64,000 bases of DNA from Candidatus Hermodarchaeota archaeon (GCA_048885925.1 JBHLLG010000009.1:16051-80050), one strand, 5' to 3'. Shown: positions 51,016 to 59,930, counted from the stretch's first letter. Numbers and translations are program-made. The notes: generated from the letters alone by a model not told the origin.

Positions 51016-51972
51016 ATGAGTAAATTAAAAGAACTCAAAAAAATACTTTTCTGTGGGTTAGAAAGTGGAGGAAAGACATCGATCCTTTTATTATTAGATA
51101 GAAGATTCAGTCTCCTGTCAACAGTTAAGCCAACTATAAAAACAAAAAGAACATTCCATATAAATTCATTACTAGGCATAACAATTATACGTTGGGATTT
51201 AGGAGGTCAAAAAAGTTATCGAAAAATATATCTGGGCAATAAAAGTAAATATTTCACAGAAATGCAATCAATTTTTTATGTTATAGATATCCAGGCACCA
51301 GAAAAGTTTGAAGAAGCAGTAATTTTTCTTCAAGATATCATGAATATCACTTCAGAATCGCATCCGGATAACTTTCAATTATTAATTTTACTCCACAAAT
51401 ATGATCCTGATATTAAAAATAAGAAAAGAATTATTGAGAATATATCATATTTAGAAAACAAACTTTCATCTATTTTTAAAGAAGTTAAATTTTCTTTATA
51501 TAAAACCTCAATATATGATGAACCAAGTTTATTAAAAGCTTTCTCTGATGGTGTTTTTTACGCTACTCATAAATCTAAGATGTTTCAAACCTTATTAAAA
51601 GAATATATGGGTAAAACCTATAATAGCTCGACACTTCTTTTGGATCAGAATTGTTTTATAATTGCTAGTAGAAGCACAAATGAAGCTTATCAAAAGATTT
51701 GTGAGGCTATTGCTCCAAGGTTAACACAAGCATTAGAGAAACTTGAAGAATGGGATATAAATACAATTGATATTGTCACAAACATAGAATTTCCAGAAAA
51801 ACAATCAGAATTTCAAAAAGAAGGAATAATTTTTCTGAGAAAATTAGATATCGGAGACATTAGACTTTATTTGGTCGCACTTTGTTTAAATAAGAAAGTA
51901 AAAGTTAAATCCTATGAATTTTTGCCCGTATTGGCAGAAAATTTAAAAAAATTATTAGAAAGTTTTGATTAG
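51016..51972 (+). CDS. small GTPase (Rag/Arf-like) with C-terminal Roadblock/longin-like extension
   Basis: GLESGGKTS, PT, WDLGGQ, HKYD, TSI, plus about 130 aa helix-strand-strand-helix C-terminal domain. Confidence 0.85.
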   Translation: MSKLKELKKILFCGLESGGKTSILLLLDRRFSLLSTVKPTIKTKRTFHINSLLGITIIRWDLGGQKSYRKIYLGNKSKYFTEMQSIFYVIDIQAPEKFEEAVIFLQDIMNITSESHPDNFQLLILLHKYDPDIKNKKRIIENISYLENKLSSIFKEVKFSLYKTSIYDEPSLLKAFSDGVFYATHKSKMFQTLLKEYMGKTYNSSTLLLDQNCFIIASRSTNEAYQKICEAIAPRLTQALEKLEEWDINTIDIVTNIEFPEKQSEFQKEGIIFLRKLDIGDIRLYLVALCLNKKVKVKSYEFLPVLAENLKKLLESFD

Positions 51973-52187: not shown

Positions 52188-53378
52188 ATGATAAAAAAAT
52201 TCAATATACATAAAGATTATGTAGGACCAAAAGCTCTATTTGATCCTAATTACATTCCACCTCGTTTATTATATAGAAAAAAAGAAGAAGATTCGCTTTT
52301 TTCAGTATTAAATGATTCAATTTCTGATGGATTTTATCTTAACGTATTATATGAAGGAATTAATGGGATTGGAAAGAAAGTAATAGTTAATAAAGTAATA
52401 AACGATCTTTTGAATCGAAATGAAGATATCCATAAAATTAATAAAATTTGTGTTGACTGTAGAGAAAAAAAAATTGAAGAATTAATTTTTTCATTACTAA
52501 GTGAGTTGAATAATCAAACAAATCTTAAAATCGATTTTAGATTTTTATTGAATTCAGATATTCACACTCTATGGAATACATTTAAGTTTATTTGTAACAA
52601 AACTGATTCTACTTTATTTATTGTATTTAATAATATAGAATATTTAGAACCAGAAATATTTAATAAGTTTTTACAGTTTGGAAAAGAGTCAAAAATAAAT
52701 CTTATTTCTACAGTAAATAAAATTCTACGACCAGGAACATTGGATTTACTTTCTGAATTTGATTTTAAAAATAAATTGAACCTTTTTTCTTATCATGAAC
52801 TTTATTCCATTCTTAAACAAAGAGTTCTATTAAGTTTTTCACGAGAAATTGATAAAGATTTAGTTAAATATATAACAGATTTAGTTTGTGAACAATATGT
52901 ATCTGTTCCTGGAAAGGGTATTGAAATTCTCAGAGATTTATACCCAATATTAAAAAGTGATAATTTATATAGCAATATTGAATTATTAGAGATTTCTCAA
53001 AACCTTTTTGATTCATTTCAGATTTCAGATGAATTCAGTATGTTAAATTATCTTTCTGAAGAAGATATATTAACTGTTATTTTCTTAGATAACCTATCAA
53101 ATTTTTTCATAAGTAAAAGAAATTTTTATATTTCTGTAAAAGAATTAGAAGAACTCTATGAAATTTCCTGTGAAATGTTAGAATATGAAAAGAATTTTAA
53201 CGAATTCCACAAATTAATAGAAACTTTGTTAAATATTGGAATTATAAAACCATCAAAAAGAAGATCTCACAAACTTAACGTTTATAATAGATTAAGCAAT
53301 CATAACTTTGAATTATTTTTCATTTTACTAAACCCAAAACAAATTAAAATTATAATTGATACGATTTTTAACCAATAG
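52188..53378 (+). CDS. Orc1/Cdc6-like AAA+ protein with degenerate Walker motifs
   Basis: FDPNYIPPRL.YR..E start, GINGIGKK, VDC, IVFNNIE, Y...EL..IL..R, C-terminal wH. Confidence 0.8.
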   Translation: MIKKFNIHKDYVGPKALFDPNYIPPRLLYRKKEEDSLFSVLNDSISDGFYLNVLYEGINGIGKKVIVNKVINDLLNRNEDIHKINKICVDCREKKIEELIFSLLSELNNQTNLKIDFRFLLNSDIHTLWNTFKFICNKTDSTLFIVFNNIEYLEPEIFNKFLQFGKESKINLISTVNKILRPGTLDLLSEFDFKNKLNLFSYHELYSILKQRVLLSFSREIDKDLVKYITDLVCEQYVSVPGKGIEILRDLYPILKSDNLYSNIELLEISQNLFDSFQISDEFSMLNYLSEEDILTVIFLDNLSNFFISKRNFYISVKELEELYEISCEMLEYEKNFNEFHKLIETLLNIGIIKPSKRRSHKLNVYNRLSNHNFELFFILLNPKQIKIIIDTIFNQ

Positions 53379-53553
53379 CAGAAAAAATTAAGATTTCATC
53401 TAATTATTTTCTGATTCAATAGAAAAATTCAAGTGAAAACTATTTCAAAAATGTAAATATGGAAAACAGATTTTTTTAATAAACTATATTATATATTTAT
53501 AGGTGTAATCACACTATTTTTTTAATAATAACAAGTAGAAATGGAGATTAATC

Positions 53554-56500
53554 TTGACTTACATAAAAAAAATCTCTATGAGTGGTTTTAAATCGTTTGG
53601 AGATAGAACTGTTACAATTCGTCTTTCAAGTGGATTTACATGCATTGTAGGACCTAATGGTGCAGGAAAGTCAAATATTATTGATGCTCTATGTTTTTCT
53701 TTAGGCAGATTAAGTAAAAAAACAATGAGGGCTAAGAGTTTAGAAGATTTGATTTTCGCTGGCTCACGAGGAAAAAATCCGTCACAAAGAGCATCTGTTA
53801 CCTTATACTTTGATAACTCTGAAAATATTTTTCCAGGAGCTCCAGCAGATTTTGAAATTACACGTACGATCAAGAGAGGTGGTGGCGGAGGATATAAAAT
53901 GAATGGAAAAAAAGTCACTCGTCAACAAATTCTAAATGCATTAGCAGCAGCTAATATTGATCCAGATGGTAGTAATCAATTTGTCCTTCAAGGAAAAATA
54001 GTTGAATTGACCCATATGAATTCAGAAGAACGAAGGAGATTTATTGAAGAATTAATAGGACTTCAAAGATATGATGAAATGAAAGATGCCACATTGAAAG
54101 AGTTAGAAAAAGCAGAAAGAGATTTAGGACAATTTGAAGCTATCTTCAAGGAAGTATCTGCTCAATTGAAAAAAGTTGAAAAAGAGAAGAATGACGCATT
54201 AGCTTGGAAAGAATTTGATGAAAAAATAAATTTTTTAAATTCACAGTTGATTGCATTAAAAATTTCTCAATTAAGAGCAGAGGAGGATGAATTAGAACGT
54301 AAGATCGAAAACTCCTTAAAAATTGTTGAAGAACTACAAGAAAAAATAAATCGACAAGAAGATGTATTAAAACAAGAATCATTAGTTATGGATAACATTC
54401 AAAAAACCATTACAGATAAAGAAAAGGAAAGGGAGGAAATAACTGAAAAAATAACACAAATTAAAACCCAAATATCTTCAAGTCAAACTACATTAGATTT
54501 AGCAAAAAAGTCAATTGATAAATTAACTCAAGAAATTGAAGATCTGGAAAGTAAACAAATGGTACTTGAGGAGGGTCAAACATTTGATTCAATGATAGAG
54601 AGTTTATCAAAAGAAATTTTAGAGCATGAGAATCAAATAGAAGAAGCTAAAAATGAAATTGAAAAACGACAGCAAAATCAAGCTGAATTAGATGGAAAAA
54701 TAAAAAATGCGGAGGATGAAAAATCTCAATTTAAATCTGAAATTTCCAAGATTCAACAAAAAATTTCATCAAATAATGCACAAATTAAGATGCTTAGAGG
54801 AACAATTAAAAAGAATGAAGAAAAGAGGGAAAAATTACAAAATGAATTAGAAAAATTGAAAAAAGATGCTGAGAGTATTGATGAAGCCATTGAACTTACT
54901 AAAAATGCAGAATTGGAAATTAGAAAAAAAATAAACGATATAAACTCTAAAATTTCTAAAGAAAATCAAAATCAAAAAGATTTAGAAAATAAAATAAATA
55001 ATCTTCAATCTGATAAATATCAATTGAATTCTAAATTAACAGATTTTCAATCTTCCTTATCATCTTTAACTACTGAAATTAAAATGAATCAAGACAGTAT
55101 ACAAGAATTAAATGATAAGAAAATTTCTATTGAGAAAAAAATAACGGAACTAAGTAAGGGTAGAGACGCTGAAAAGGCTGTAAAGGAATTATTAAAAGAA
55201 AATGATAATATTAATAAAGAACTAGGTCAATTGAGGGCTCAATTAAAGCAAGAAAATTCATCTTTTAGGAAAAATGAGCAAGATTTAGAATTAATGAACA
55301 TGAAGAAATATTCTAATGATTCTGAAATTAATGATAACAATGCAAAGATTGATAATATCAATACAGAATTAAAAATCCTTACAAAAGAATTAAAAAAATT
55401 AGATAGGGAAAAGAATAACTTAGATCTACAAGTTAATTCCTTAGAACAAAACCTTACAACTATTAAAAATGAAACTGAAAAATTTGAAAACAAAAAAGAA
55501 AACGTTCAAAGACGTTTAGAAGAGCTTTCACAAGAAAGAGAAAATATTTCTAAAAAAATAGAGTTAACTGAAGAAGAATATGAGAAAAATACAAAAGATA
55601 TAACCGGAATTCTACAGATATTAAACATGTTAACGCAAAATATTAACATATCAGTTGAATCTATAAAAGCTAATATACAACAGTCAAATGCAGAAGCAAT
55701 TGAATCATCTGCAGATGATTTCAAAAAATTTATTCTTGACATATTCGATATTATAAAAACAGTTGAGGATATTGGAACTGATGAGGAAAAACATGCTGAA
55801 ATGACAGAAATGATAAACTCTATTATGAAAACTTTAAAAATGTTTACAGATAATGCAGACGAAACAATAAATCAACTGATAGATAAAGTTAAAGAATCTG
55901 CAGATGTTGAGGTACAAAGTTCAACAGCTACATTCGATAGTTTTGTTCAGGATTTAATGGAAATTCTTGAAAATGTGTACCTCTCTTTACGAAAACTTAC
56001 TATGTCTAAAAGTCAAGAATTATATAAACAATTGGAAGAGATCTCACAAAATATTGAATCCCAAACAAGTGATTATAATAAAATTGGAAAACAATTATCC
56101 GAAAGTAAAATTCAAACTGACCATTATACAGAGAATCTTTCATCATATAAAAAAAGAATTGAAGAAATTAATAAAAGAAACGCCGATTTAAATGATAGAA
56201 TTAAAAAAGCTGAGAAAGAAATTAATGAAAGAGAGAAAATTATAGATAATAGACAAGTAGAATCAACTAATCTTGAAAATGATATAATTAAACTCAAAGA
56301 ACTTAAGGATACCTATTGGGAAAAAATTTCTATGATACAAGATGATATTGATATCAAACAAAAAGAACAGGAAAGTTTAAGAGAAAAATTACAGGAATTG
56401 CATGGGATTCGAAATTTATTTGATAATATTACGGAAATTGATGAAAGTGTAGAAAAAATAAAGAATGTTATAGAAGAAAAGAAAAATTTAATAATAAACA

Positions 56501-58005
56501 CAGAAGAAAGTATTAAAAATATTCAAACTGAGCAAAATTCATTAGAAAAAAGTATTAACGAGCTTATTTTACAAAAAGAGAATTTTTGGGAAATTACAGA
56601 GGATTTACGAAAACAAATGGACGAAGAAAATAAAACGCTTGAAGATACAATGGATCGTCTAAGAGCACTTGAAAACGTAATGAGGTTAATTACTTCCATA
56701 GAGGATATTAAAAAAGAGAATGTTGATGCAAATAATAAAATAGAAACTTGCCAAAATGATATTAAAGGATTAAATTCTCAAGTTGAAGAAATTCAAAAGG
56801 ATGTAGGTCAAAAGGAACAAATAATAGATTCTCTAAGAAATGAAAAAACTGAAGAACTTGAGTCACAAAAAGCAGCTCAGAAAAAATTAAACAAATTAAA
56901 TAAAGATTTACAAAAATCTCAAGGAAAGTTAAATGAATTACATAAAAATAAGGAAAGAGAACAAAAAATTATAGGATTAAAGCAAGATATTAAGGACACT
57001 GAAGAACAGGTAGATTCAATATCAAAAGAATTAGTGTCTTTTAAAGAAGACTTGGATAATGAAAACGTTAAAAAACAAGAAAAACAAAAGGAGATTGATG
57101 AATATATTCAAGAAAAAGATGAATCATGGAAAAAACAAAAACAATATCAGAAGATATTAAATGATTTAAAATCAGATCTTTCGATGGAAAACTCAAAAAT
57201 AAATAATTTTGAATCAAAAAAGTTAATGTGTACTGACCAAATTGAGACTTTATTTCACCGATCTAAAGAATATGGTTCATTACCTCCTGTAACTGATGAT
57301 CTTTCAGAACCAGAATTGCAATCAGATATCGTAGAATTGACAAATAAAAAAAAGGCTCTTGAACCAGTTAACTTAAAAGCAATCGAACAATATGACACAG
57401 TTAAAGAAAGATTTGATGAAATTGATATGAGACGTCAAACAATTCAACGAGAAAGAAAATCAATTTTAGATGCAATTGATAAAATTGAACTAGAAAAAAC
57501 AAGAACATTCATGAAAGCATACCATGAGATAAATAGAGAGTTTAGTAGGATTTTTCAAAAACTTAGCCCTGGTGGTTCAGCAAAAATGATTCTAGATCGA
57601 CCAGACAAGCCATTTGAAGGAGGTATAAGTATAGAAGCAAGACCAAGAGGTAAAAAAATTAGTTCATTAGAAATATTAAGTGGTGGTGAAAAGACATTAG
57701 TAGCATTATCTTTTATTTTTGCAGTTCAAGAATTTTATCCTGCTCCATTTTATGTAATGGATGAGATAGATGCTGCTCTAGATGGACCTAATGTGCATCG
57801 TGTTTCAATAGTTATCAAAGAATTTGCTTCACAGGCTCAATTTATGGTGATCAGTCATAGGGAAGAAAATATTGTTAATGCGGATCGTATATATGGAGTC
57901 TCTATGCAACAAAGTGGAATAACAGACATTTTCAGTGTTGATTTGGAAGAAGAAGCCAAAAGACTCCTTGAACTTGAAGATATTGAACCAACTATAACTG
58001 AGTGA
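53554..58005 (+). CDS. smc: SMC ATPase with non-canonical hinge region
   Basis: GFKSF, GPNGAGKSN, LQG Q-loop, LEPVN.KA, LSGGEK, MDEIDAALD, ISH; followed by scpA and scpB. Confidence 0.95.
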   Translation: MTYIKKISMSGFKSFGDRTVTIRLSSGFTCIVGPNGAGKSNIIDALCFSLGRLSKKTMRAKSLEDLIFAGSRGKNPSQRASVTLYFDNSENIFPGAPADFEITRTIKRGGGGGYKMNGKKVTRQQILNALAAANIDPDGSNQFVLQGKIVELTHMNSEERRRFIEELIGLQRYDEMKDATLKELEKAERDLGQFEAIFKEVSAQLKKVEKEKNDALAWKEFDEKINFLNSQLIALKISQLRAEEDELERKIENSLKIVEELQEKINRQEDVLKQESLVMDNIQKTITDKEKEREEITEKITQIKTQISSSQTTLDLAKKSIDKLTQEIEDLESKQMVLEEGQTFDSMIESLSKEILEHENQIEEAKNEIEKRQQNQAELDGKIKNAEDEKSQFKSEISKIQQKISSNNAQIKMLRGTIKKNEEKREKLQNELEKLKKDAESIDEAIELTKNAELEIRKKINDINSKISKENQNQKDLENKINNLQSDKYQLNSKLTDFQSSLSSLTTEIKMNQDSIQELNDKKISIEKKITELSKGRDAEKAVKELLKENDNINKELGQLRAQLKQENSSFRKNEQDLELMNMKKYSNDSEINDNNAKIDNINTELKILTKELKKLDREKNNLDLQVNSLEQNLTTIKNETEKFENKKENVQRRLEELSQERENISKKIELTEEEYEKNTKDITGILQILNMLTQNINISVESIKANIQQSNAEAIESSADDFKKFILDIFDIIKTVEDIGTDEEKHAEMTEMINSIMKTLKMFTDNADETINQLIDKVKESADVEVQSSTATFDSFVQDLMEILENVYLSLRKLTMSKSQELYKQLEEISQNIESQTSDYNKIGKQLSESKIQTDHYTENLSSYKKRIEEINKRNADLNDRIKKAEKEINEREKIIDNRQVESTNLENDIIKLKELKDTYWEKISMIQDDIDIKQKEQESLREKLQELHGIRNLFDNITEIDESVEKIKNVIEEKKNLIINTEESIKNIQTEQNSLEKSINELILQKENFWEITEDLRKQMDEENKTLEDTMDRLRALENVMRLITSIEDIKKENVDANNKIETCQNDIKGLNSQVEEIQKDVGQKEQIIDSLRNEKTEELESQKAAQKKLNKLNKDLQKSQGKLNELHKNKEREQKIIGLKQDIKDTEEQVDSISKELVSFKEDLDNENVKKQEKQKEIDEYIQEKDESWKKQKQYQKILNDLKSDLSMENSKINNFESKKLMCTDQIETLFHRSKEYGSLPPVTDDLSEPELQSDIVELTNKKKALEPVNLKAIEQYDTVKERFDEIDMRRQTIQRERKSILDAIDKIELEKTRTFMKAYHEINREFSRIFQKLSPGGSAKMILDRPDKPFEGGISIEARPRGKKISSLEILSGGEKTLVALSFIFAVQEFYPAPFYVMDEIDAALDGPNVHRVSIVIKEFASQAQFMVISHREENIVNADRIYGVSMQQSGITDIFSVDLEEEAKRLLELEDIEPTITE

Positions 58006-58020
58006 AATAGGTGAGTAAAA

Positions 58021-59022
58021 ATTTCAAATAATCAACAAAATTCTCAAAAAAAATATAATTTCAATGAATGGACTGTAAAAGAATTAAGAGAATTCGCCTC
58101 AAAAAATAATATAAGTATTCCTTCAAAATCGAAGAAAAAAGAGATTATAGAATTACTTCAAAATATAGTATCTAATCCTGAATTTGTAGATAGAACTCAA
58201 GAAATTGAAGAACTAAATGTAGAATTAGTTGCTGAATTTGATGAGGAGGAAGATCTTGCTTTATTGAGAAAAGAAAAGGCGGAATTAAAGTTTTGGCAAA
58301 AACCTCCATTTTCAAGCCTATTGGATACTGAAATCGCAAAAGAATCAGAAATCGCATTTTATGATTTATCAAAATTGGTTGATGAATTTTTTGACAAGAT
58401 GCTTCATGAAGAATTGATCAATTATAAGATTTCTGGAATAGCGCTTAAAACTTCAGCAACTTTGCATCATTATAAAATTTCCAGTATAATAAAAGAAGAG
58501 GAAGAAATCCAAAAAAGAGAAGAATTAGAAAAATTCAGACAAAGACATTCTAGATCAATTCCAAAAGCATTACCTCAACCAATTTCACCTAAAATGCAAA
58601 TAGCTACTAAAGATGAATTATTTGATGCAATGAGATCTGCTATTATTGAAGTTATGCAAAATAAAGAAAAATTAAGAAGAAAAAGAATGAGAAGAGAAGA
58701 ACTTAAACAACAAATGATTCAAATGAAATCTAAAGCACAATTGCCTAAAGAACTTTTAAAACATATTAGCGGAAGGGAACAAACTGTAGAAGAATTACAT
58801 GAATCATGGTATAATAGAATAAAAGCTTCAATTAATTTAAATAATAAAAATATGAGTTTTTATGATTTAGCATCAATTATAAAAGATGGAGAAAAAAGTA
58901 GTTTAGGACGTAAATTTGCATTTGTAAGATTATTTTTAGCTTTGATGTTTTTATCTACTGGAAATAGATTGAATCTATCGCAAGATGAAGATTTTCAAAA
59001 TATTTCAATTAATTTAAAATAA
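58021..59022 (+). CDS. scpA: kleisin ScpA with N-terminal HeH/SAP/Rho_N-like extension
   Basis: DLSKLVDEF..SGIAL..SA.L...K and C-terminal FLALMFL..G...L.Q...F..I.I; frame open from 58015 and includes WTVKELREFA...KKEIIELL. Confidence 0.85.
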   Translation: MSNNQQNSQKKYNFNEWTVKELREFASKNNISIPSKSKKKEIIELLQNIVSNPEFVDRTQEIEELNVELVAEFDEEEDLALLRKEKAELKFWQKPPFSSLLDTEIAKESEIAFYDLSKLVDEFFDKMLHEELINYKISGIALKTSATLHHYKISSIIKEEEEIQKREELEKFRQRHSRSIPKALPQPISPKMQIATKDELFDAMRSAIIEVMQNKEKLRRKRMRREELKQQMIQMKSKAQLPKELLKHISGREQTVEELHESWYNRIKASINLNNKNMSFYDLASIIKDGEKSSLGRKFAFVRLFLALMFLSTGNRLNLSQDEDFQNISINLK

Positions 59023-59063
59023 AAATTAAATTTTTTATACTTAATACTAAATTTGGTGATTCT

Positions 59064-59930
59064 ATGGAAAAAAATCTTGATGATGATCTTAAAGAAGAAT
59101 CAGAAGAAGATTCTGAAGAAGCTTTTAATGAATTTTCTAAAAATCTTCAAGAAGAAGAAAAAGAATTTCTAGATATTAAAGAAAGTAATCAAGAAATTGA
59201 AGAATCCCCCATAAGTAAAATTGATGAGGGTGAAATTGTAACGGAAAGTGAAGAACTTAAGATAATCAGTTTAGATAATAACGTTGAAGAACAATCTTTA
59301 GAGCATGAGATAGTTAAAGAAGTTCCGTTAGAATTAGATATAAAAGACTTTCATAGAAATTTAATTGAAGCTGCTCTCTATGCGGCGGGAGGTCCTTTAA
59401 CAATTGAGGAACTATCAACTAAATTAGAACTTCCTAAGAAAGAAGTGGAAATTTTAGTAAATGAATTAGCTTTTGATTACTTAGAGCGCGTTACAGCTCT
59501 AATTATAGCACAAATTGGAGATAGATACCAAATGCAGATTAGACCAGAATATACTGAAAAAGTTTCAAAGTTTGCTAAAGGAGGAGCCATAGCTGAACGT
59601 TATCTTAGAACTTTAACTGTAATAGCTTTAAAACAGCCAATTTTGAAGTCAACAGTTATCAAATTACGAGGAACTGGTGCATATGAACATATAAAATATC
59701 TTCTAGACAATGAATTTATCAATGCTGTTAAAAAAGGAAGATCTCATGAGTTAACCACCACAGATAAATACGCAGATATGTTTGGTTTACCAAGAGATAT
59801 CAGACAAATGAAATATGTTATGATTACTCAATTGGGAATCGAACAGGTAATGAGAAATGGTAGTTCGGATGATGTTGAACAAGGAGATCAAAATAAACCT
59901 TTAAGTGATGATGATATAGGAGAAGAATAG
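59064..59930 (+). CDS. scpB: SMC-Scp complex subunit ScpB
   Basis: IEAALYAAG.PL, LRTL.VIA.KQP.....I..RG......I..L....I...GR....TT..Y...FGL; acidic N-terminal extension. Confidence 0.93.
   Translation: MEKNLDDDLKEESEEDSEEAFNEFSKNLQEEEKEFLDIKESNQEIEESPISKIDEGEIVTESEELKIISLDNNVEEQSLEHEIVKEVPLELDIKDFHRNLIEAALYAAGGPLTIEELSTKLELPKKEVEILVNELAFDYLERVTALIIAQIGDRYQMQIRPEYTEKVSKFAKGGAIAERYLRTLTVIALKQPILKSTVIKLRGTGAYEHIKYLLDNEFINAVKKGRSHELTTTDKYADMFGLPRDIRQMKYVMITQLGIEQVMRNGSSDDVEQGDQNKPLSDDDIGEE

Follow-up and report, generated by a model that had tools for sequence, protein, structure and literature searches.

A 64,000-nucleotide stretch of archaeal DNA (GCA_048885925.1, JBHLLG010000009.1:16051-80050, Candidatus Hermodarchaeota archaeon), which is called the window in the following, carries at positions 52,188 to 59,930 four consecutive genes on one strand, encoding an Orc1/Cdc6-like protein, an SMC protein (for structural maintenance of chromosomes), the kleisin ScpA and the kite protein ScpB. 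We consider it likely that this locus encodes a lineage-specific, condensin-type Smc-ScpAB complex of Loki-type Asgard archaea, termed type A here, which has no SMC hinge and most probably serves housekeeping chromosome organisation. The hinge is predicted to be replaced by an internally duplicated four-helix bundle carried on long modular arms. To our knowledge, the SMC hinge is treated as universal and essential, being the site of dimerisation and a site of DNA contact.

An earlier sequence-only reading of the locus had noted four consecutive same-strand genes, each of which deviates from its standard form, and this description is confirmed by the open reading frames (ORFs) together with the profile and model results. 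The features, all on the plus strand and numbered from the first nucleotide of the window, are the following (aa, amino acids).

52188..53378 (+): Orc1/Cdc6-like AAA+ plus winged-helix protein, 396 aa (TIGR02928 alignment, comparison with true Orc1/Cdc6 genes and orthologues)
53554..58005 (+): type A SMC, 1483 aa, TTG start behind GGAG (PF02463, TIGR02168, TIGR02169)
54064..55572 (+): SMC arm strand on the N-terminal side (about aa 171-673), a coiled coil whose period is 195 aa, or 2 x 97-98 (autocorrelation; limits estimated)
55573..56013 (+): predicted SMC apex four-helix bundle in the place of the hinge, aa 674-820 (AlphaFold2, VIA-align, hhalign)
55591-55764 and 55804-55977 (+): apex repeat units of two helices each (hhalign of unit 1 vs unit 2)
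56014..57423 (+): SMC arm strand on the C-terminal side (about aa 821-1290), a coiled coil whose period is 90 aa (autocorrelation; limits estimated)
58010..58023 (+): Shine-Dalgarno-like GGTGA (58010-58014) and, 6 nucleotides on, ATT as probable non-canonical scpA start (conservation)
58021..59022 (+): ScpA kleisin, 333 aa (profile vs PDB, AlphaFold2 model, Foldseek, sub-threshold Pfam)
58264-59022 (+): ScpA ORF as listed with a TTG start (ORF listing); the true start is more likely 58021
58060-58170, 58282-58548 and 58747-59019 (+): ScpA parts, namely helix-extension-helix (HeH)-like module, N-terminal helical domain and C-terminal winged helix, with an acidic linker between the first two and a long charged middle between the last two
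59064..59930 (+): ScpB kite, 288 aa (PF04079, TIGR00281)
59064-59348, 59361-59795 and 59799-59927 (+): ScpB parts, namely acidic N-terminal extension, core and short acidic C tail (charge counts)

An SMC without hinge

The heads identify the protein as an SMC. PF02463 matches split across aa 3-1457 (E 2.7e-36, 125.5 bits), the TIGR02168 score of 619.3 bits lies above the cut-off of 567.35, the TIGR02169 score of 646.3 bits lies below the cut-off of 729.4, and Rad50 models reach 111 bits or less. Walker A, Q-loop, signature motif, Walker B and H-loop are all present, with GPNGAGKS at aa 33-40 (Walker A, 53650-53673), LSGGEK at aa 1375-1380 (signature, 57676-57693), FYVMDEID at aa 1399-1406 (Walker B, 57748-57771) and VISHR at aa 1432-1436. 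By these motifs the type A heads are those of a canonical SMC ATPase, and the protein is predicted to retain a working ABC-ATPase head; its relatives are named partly 'AAA family ATPase' and partly 'SMC' at NCBI.

When the heads are taken to end at about aa 170 and to restart at about aa 1290, the arm strands are estimated at about 450-500 residues each, approximately 1.4-1.5 times the usual length, the arm of Bacillus subtilis Smc measuring 344 residues (Bürmann et al., PMC5344682). Their coiled-coil nature is indicated by periods that are heptad multiples and, for the part covered by the structural model (SMC aa 620-900 only), by helices at model residues 2-90 and 201-280 with an outer predicted local distance difference test score (pLDDT) of about 95. 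Autocorrelation over 11 orthologues gives a period of 90 aa (z 4.0) and also 180 aa (z 3.4) for the C-terminal strand and a top offset of 195 aa (z 3.9) for the N-terminal strand; because of these periods the term 'modular', used for a hinge-less SMC in the sequence-only reading, holds as well.

Between the arms no hinge is found by any of the searches. Scanned alone, SMC aa 601-1000 have no PF06470 match even at E<=10, none of the 46 PF06470 matches in 40 related genomes falls in an open frame longer than 1253 aa, and the family is listed for none of the 120 best homologues. A profile of 18 orthologous central regions retrieves 42 hits from the PDB, which are coiled coils and designed helical proteins only. 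The AlphaFold2 model of aa 620-900, built on an alignment of 18 sequences, consists of five helices without any strand, with pLDDT averaging 81 and reaching about 95 where the outer helices pair, vs 65-77 in the bundle. Foldseek with this model finds nothing in the PDB at E<=0.001, while VIA-align in wide mode returns only generic up-down four-helix bundles over model residues 55-201 (SMC aa 674-820), with a best match of Z 16.0 and root-mean-square deviation (rmsd) 3.0 over 140 aligned residues, a level that helical models often reach by VIA-align's own rating. The halves of the apex are homologous to each other (aa 680-737 vs 751-808, hhalign probability 98%, E 1.6e-13, 58 columns). Over aa 672-842 the net charge is -20 and neither Pro nor Cys occurs; because Cys is absent, the apex cannot form a zinc hook. 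In the ESM Atlas the apex is found in unnamed clusters only, with scores of 0.89 or less. PF24161, which is listed for many of the homologues, was considered and rejected, as it is a coiled-coil family (CCDC39) and has no match in the genome.

The sequence-only reading would have been overturned by a canonical SMC; what is found, by profile scans and model, is a canonical head with no detectable hinge. That a hinge is nevertheless present and has diverged past Pfam recognition, which would make the SMC canonical in architecture, is hardly tenable: hinges can drift, since those of another SMC type in related genomes (type C, see below) score only E 1e-5 to 1e-8, but the central 150 residues here are predicted to be all-helical without a strand and to be built from two homologous two-helix units, they contain 2 Gly, no Pro and no glycine-rich dimer motif, and the apex matches generic helical bundles only, with no PDB hinge retrieved by the 18-sequence profile.

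Kleisin and kite

ScpA is a kleisin by profile and predicted fold. PF02616 stays below threshold (E 0.016, 15.7 bits vs a cut-off of 24.6) and covers the C-terminal part only. On the other hand, a profile of 11 ScpA orthologues finds in the PDB the N domain of Thermococcus onnurineus ScpA (6ivh_A, E 2.1e-4) and ScpA C domains (E 0.024-0.029), and the seven best Foldseek matches of the model are ScpA/Scc1 C-terminal winged helices bound to SMC heads (TMt 0.64-0.81; best 4i99_C with TMt 0.81 and rmsd 2.5; none at E<=0.001). The N-terminal helical domain should bind the SMC neck and the C-terminal winged helix the SMC cap.

The gene appears to start far upstream of the listed TTG at 58264. The frame is open from 58015, directly behind an in-frame stop at 58012-58014, with no ATG, GTG or TTG in frame between this stop and 58264, and the upstream part encodes a conserved W-T-V-K-E-L-R-E-F-A motif. 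Over 36 codons from this motif the 51 orthologous loci show 314, 158 and 902 differences at codon positions 1, 2 and 3, respectively, and the HeH region is therefore translated and constrained. Thirty-five of the 51 loci lack any ATG, GTG or TTG from the upstream in-frame stop to the motif; in most, GGTG is followed after a few bases by an Ile codon, and in one (L046) ATG stands at the same spot. Contigs from sequencing runs of two studies cover 57800-58277 and 57804-58352, show no indel and leave 58021-58023 unchanged; one of the two runs may come from the source sample itself. Because of the conserved frame, the GGTGA at 58010-58014 and the contigs without indel, the scpA start is placed at ATT 58021, which we regard as probable, and an archaeal gene with a conserved near-cognate start may thus be at hand. 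An alternative, readthrough from SMC into ScpA, was rejected, as there are two in-frame stops in the window and the phase of the spacing varies among orthologues. Across the family, the kleisin start is ATT, ATA or ATC behind a strong GGTG(A) in most genera and ATG at this place in few.

Within the extended frame, aa 13-49 match the HeH-type families (PF12949, PF02037, PF07498 and PF10281) below their cut-offs, the Ish1, Rho_N and HeH matches falling at aa 14-48, with scores of 25.3 bits for Ish1 (cut-off 26.6), 24.3 for Rho_N (24.9), 22.2 for HeH (28.9) and 15.5 for SAP (23.9). The model folds this part as helix-extension-helix with helices at 19-28 and 39-50 (pLDDT 82-86), followed by a disordered acidic linker, the N-terminal helical domain, the long charged middle and the C-terminal winged helix. 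The HeH domain of the sequence-only reading is accordingly a candidate HeH-like module, indicated by sub-threshold Pfam matches and by the modelled fold.

ScpB is recognised by PF04079 (113.3 bits, cut-off 27.4, aa 100-244) and TIGR00281 (93.5 bits, cut-off 89.2). It had been described as acidic-tailed, and a short acidic C tail does exist (aa 246-288, 10 D/E vs 4 K/R), but the main acidic part is the N-terminal extension, where residues 1-95 hold 36 D/E vs 9 K/R.

Distribution and stepwise history of type A

The window's family and genus are designated f1 and g1 here, and the order comprises families f1 to f4 of the Loki-type Asgard archaea. A profile of the apex matches 113 of 133 f1 genomes (the window's own genome left out), 14/14 in f2, 1/1 in f3 and 2/4 in f4, in sum 130 of the 152 genomes of the order, vs 3 of 246 genomes in other families of the phylum; two of these three look like mis-binned Loki contigs and the third match is weak (E 1e-4). 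Two cultured strains, Promethearchaeum syntrophicum MK-D1 and Ca. Lokiarchaeum ossiferum Loki-B35, encode the apex too, according to the records that bear their names. Among 1.84 billion representatives, a hidden Markov model search finds only 40 proteins with the apex at E<=0.001, which are SMCs of about 1460-1500 aa plus a second set of about 920-1180 aa with tandem copies.

This second apex-bearing family (P0019, P0022, P0023, P0028 and others; e.g. G037:C1:980327-981553) occurs mainly in f2. Its members have at least two tandem apex units near the N-terminus, and the four that were scanned match no Pfam family; in P0023 and P0028 a beta-rich middle and then a very lysine-rich tail follow.

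Related genomes carry up to three types of SMC. Besides type A there is type B, an SMC of about 1200 aa with a hinge of E about 1e-30, a TIGR02169 score of 828 bits and an adjoining ScpB, and type C, an SMC of about 1140-1190 aa with a weak hinge (E 1e-5 to 1e-8) and small partner genes of its own. In a FastTree tree of 33 SMCs type A forms a clade of support 1.0 on a long stem, while type B (1.0) stands among other Asgard SMCs; the sister of type A is an SMC from family f16 with a support of only 0.43, so that the deep position is not settled by this tree. The view of the locus as a distinct Smc-ScpAB subtype, put forward in the sequence-only reading, agrees with this clade and with the order-specific apex. 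The type B gene of one genome (G174) was provisionally taken for a pseudogene ('2 TAA inside'), which was rejected when an intact frame of 1196 aa was found.

Strong hinges are rare in the family: matches at E<=1e-15 are seen in 13 of 134 family genomes, in 0/52 of g1 and in 0/42 of genus g22. The window's own genome, a 95% complete bin, has no hinge match at all, and the other, canonical SMC asked about earlier is thus not found in it. Type A thus appears to be the only condensin-type SMC in g1. In a congener, type C is followed by a gene whose counterpart in the window's genome (82.5% identity) is cut by the start of contig C99; the second, SMC5/6-like SMC of this genome is therefore probably lost in an assembly gap. 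In genus g17 strong hinge matches (G189:C72:87110-87448, G190:C96:12793-13134) lie in open frames of 238-247 aa only, which may be remnants of a decaying canonical SMC.

The partner genes follow a nested pattern. SMC-ScpA-ScpB order is kept in f1, f2 and f4. What ScpA carries as an N-terminal add-on varies: most f1 genera have the HeH-like module, g12 has a Cys/His motif, f2 a lysine-rich stretch and f4 a Pro/Ala-rich one. At their type A loci f1, f2 and f4 all have a long ScpB extension, which is acidic in the first two families. The joint divergence of four traits proposed in the sequence-only reading is not supported by this distribution across families and genera: the traits form a nested series gained step by step, in which the hinge-less SMC and the extended ScpA and ScpB are order-wide and the HeH-like module and the Orc-like neighbour are found in most f1 genera only.

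The 3' end of the SMC gene is a frequent insertion point in relatives. In several of them the last 47-75 SMC codons are repeated at 86-91% identity 6.7-17.5 kb downstream of the SMC (G016:C85:28392-28616, G008:C82:63522-63749, G004:C98:91086-91307, G012:C63:34964-35107). No scpA follows the SMC in eleven loci for which 2.5 kb or more of downstream DNA is present (L028, L033, L048, L050, L055, L059, L068, L070, L072, L077 and L088). Both observations have the look of elements that integrated at the 3' end of the SMC gene. The insert of L033 encodes a 603-aa zinc-finger protein and a T2SSE/VirB11-like ATPase; the window itself is without an insert.

The Orc1/Cdc6-like neighbour

The gene upstream of the SMC encodes a degenerate Orc1/Cdc6, as had been noted earlier from the sequence. 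TIGR02928 aligns over aa 16-358 with E 3.8e-11 and 42.5 bits vs a cut-off of 181.3, and the three bona fide Orc1/Cdc6 genes of the genome score 387, 264 and 197 bits. Walker A reads GINGIGKK (aa 57-64, 52356-52379), with GKK where GKT is expected, and the place of Walker B reads FIVFNNIE (aa 144-151, 52617-52640), with NN where DE is expected. These substitutions are kept in the orthologues of the family, Walker B being degenerate in f2 orthologues too, and the protein is probably a pseudo-ATPase. Of the three bona fide genes, the one scoring 264 bits (G000:C9:8601-9680) lies on the same contig, outside the window and about 60 kb upstream. Around the Orc-like gene a repeat search for origin-like boxes gave AT-rich chance repeats only.

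Whether this protein belongs to the SMC complex is judged from gene order. In 58 of 60 evaluable loci the gene is the immediate upstream neighbour of the SMC, with orientation kept and 50-74% identity (11 of 71 loci, whose upstream DNA was too short, were not counted), and the same holds for 10 of 15 further f1 loci; both g12 loci and 3 of 4 g21 loci lack it at this place, and two of the misses among the further loci are on the same contigs as the two misses among the 60. The paralogue as such is order-wide, being present in 23/23 g1, 11/11 f2 and 3/4 f4 genomes. We incline slightly to the explanation that it is a mere neighbour, a diverged paralogue of replicative or regulatory kind that has its own promoter and plays no part in the SMC complex. 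The 175-bp gap before the SMC start with its AT-rich, promoter-like stretch speaks for this, as do the position of the paralogue away from the SMC in 11/11 f2 and 3/4 f4 genomes and the missing adjacency in g12 and 3/4 g21; because of this gap and the missing linkage in f2, f4, g12 and 3/4 g21 a functional link between the Orc-like protein and the SMC would be tentative. The conserved adjacency and orientation in the 58 of 60 loci, which persist while the gene further upstream varies, point in the opposite direction.

It is conceivable, if quite improbable, that in most of the family the dead Orc1/Cdc6 descendant is a site-specific loader or targeting factor of the hinge-less SMC, an archaeal counterpart of ParB/parS, with the DNA role of the lost hinge passed to the kleisin add-ons, which are HeH-like, zinc-finger-like or lysine-rich tails according to genus. 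If true, SMC loading and DNA recognition of the replication-origin type would be linked in the prokaryotes most closely related to eukaryotes.

In one single-contig congener (G006) the SMC frame (G006:C1:2197392-2201840) contains one in-frame TAA and the Orc-like gene is split, its first 143 codons lying about 27 kb away (G006:C1:2224851-2225279), which reflects either sequencing error or a disrupted locus.

Role of the complex

As no canonical hinge-bearing SMC is found in the window's genus, type A most likely carries out housekeeping chromosome organisation, and the housekeeping role proposed in the sequence-only reading remains the best reading, with no defence genes at the locus and a strong hinge in none of 52 genomes of the genus. 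The flanking genes are housekeeping genes, namely a HAD hydrolase, a carbon-nitrogen hydrolase and a Gtr1/RagA-like GTPase upstream and a class I aminoacyl-tRNA synthetase, tRNA-Ala and a glycyl-radical enzyme on the other strand downstream. PADLOC assigns no defence family to the Orc-like protein, ScpA or ScpB and gives the SMC only generic head and coil matches, the mad3 match reaching 163 bits vs 619-646 bits for the SMC models. That no Wadjet-type nuclease is adjacent, as stated in the sequence-only reading, is upheld, since no Wadjet (JetABCD) or Lamassu (LmuABC) partner genes are detected by PADLOC at the locus and the neighbours are housekeeping genes.

In such a complex the bundle, or the aligned arms, would hold two SMCs together, with the ScpB kite completing the complex. 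The HeH-like module at the N-terminus of ScpA may take over the DNA contact normally offered by the hinge, and the acidic extension of ScpB may counter or regulate this module. A weak ATT start behind a strong Shine-Dalgarno sequence would keep the kleisin below SMC levels. The Orc-like pseudo-ATPase may target or load the complex at specific DNA sites, which is the weakest step, as it is drawn from gene order alone.

Several points weigh against this interpretation. The complex is known from genes and predicted structures alone; dimerisation of an SMC without hinge and initiation at ATT are both inferred, the latter from conservation only; and all HeH-type Pfam scores on ScpA stay below their cut-offs. 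Twenty of the 133 f1 genomes are without an apex match; incomplete bins make up most of them, but some reach 91-98% completeness. The promoter-like gap and the patchy linkage of the Orc-like gene count here as well. Finally, type A shares several f2 genomes with a canonical type B and an SMC5/6-like type C; it therefore began as an extra paralogue and could be specialised.

The corresponding alternative is that type A is a specialised accessory SMC, engaged for example with mobile elements, repair or a second chromosome-organising task, while the basic role falls to type C or other proteins wherever the canonical SMC is missing. Type A coexists in f2 with a canonical SMC-ScpB pair and a type C operon, forms a long-branched separate clade, shares its apex with the tandem-bearing proteins of about 920-1180 aa, of which P0023 and P0028 end lysine-rich, and has at its 3' end a frequent insertion point. 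We nevertheless hold this alternative to be unlikely, as type A is single-copy, syntenic and near-universal in the order, has no nuclease or other defence gene adjoining and only generic SMC-head matches in PADLOC, and is kept where no canonical SMC is found in 52 genomes of the genus.

Comparison with known systems

Type A shares with the canonical Smc-ScpAB of B. subtilis and Pyrococcus (PF02463 plus PF06470, PF02616, PF04079) the ABC-ATPase heads, the antiparallel coiled-coil arms, the two-domain kleisin with N-terminal helical domain and C-terminal winged helix, the ScpB kite and the smc-scpA-scpB order. It differs in the predicted duplicated four-helix bundle in place of a hinge, in the longer arms, in the HeH-like add-on of ScpA and the acidic 95-aa add-on of ScpB, in the probable ATT start and in the Orc-like neighbour. 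The latter resembles the archaeal Orc1/Cdc6 initiators (TIGR02928) in its full-length alignment over AAA+ module, lid and C-terminal region, and departs from them in scoring 42.5 vs 181.3 bits and in the GKK for GKT and NN for DE substitutions conserved in orthologues. Rad50/SbcC and MukB/JetC are long-armed ATPases of the SMC superfamily which show that dimerisation is possible through something other than an SMC hinge, but type A has head scores of a true SMC, no zinc hook, and ScpA and ScpB as partners instead of Mre11 or MukEF/JetAB.

A 'hinge-less' SMC clade has been described in ocean Actinobacteria (Sussfeld et al. 2025, PMC12153180). According to the available part of that report, these proteins resemble type A in having SMC-type heads, a coiled coil, no hinge and no CXXC zinc hook and in forming a coherent environmental clade; they are bacterial, and no partner genes or apex domain are described there, so that the two are set side by side by description only. 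Asgard and TACK genomes have been found to contain several complete SMC-kleisin-kite operons each (van Hooff et al., bioRxiv 10.1101/2024.01.07.573240; Yoshinaga & Inagaki 2021, PMC8665677), and type C, with its weak hinge and a weak ScpB-like kite, resembles the SMC5/6-related operon of these studies as far as it is presented in the consulted portions. The same portions make no mention of an SMC without hinge, and the supplements may list these genes. The literature search, in which the supplements of van Hooff et al. with a possible listing of these genes were not covered, returned no description of a hinge-less SMC for archaea. The present locus adds the changes in the partner genes, the stepwise history of the traits, the apparent loss of the canonical SMC in the window's genus and the probable ATT start.

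A whole Asgard order thus appears to keep a true Smc-ScpAB with a duplicated four-helix bundle in the place of the hinge. Since type A is apparently the sole condensin-type SMC in the window's genus, natural proteins allow a direct test of what the hinge is for. How a complex adjusts to the swap of a core domain is suggested by what has changed around it, namely genus-specific, putatively DNA-binding add-ons on the kleisin, an acidic extension of the kite, a probable weak ATT start of the kleisin gene and an adjacent Orc-derived pseudo-ATPase. Because these archaea are near the eukaryotic stem, SMC types A, B and C also bear on the multiplication of SMCs before eukaryotes.

Genomic setting

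The window has 27% G+C and belongs to a genome bin of 3.9 Mb with 95% completeness, and the relatives of its proteins at 67-87% protein identity are Promethearchaeota (Loki-type Asgard archaea). The Gtr1/RagA-like small GTPase directly upstream of the Orc-like gene (318 aa, 51016-51972, +; PF04670, E 5e-24) is missing from many loci and occurs at this place in closer relatives only.

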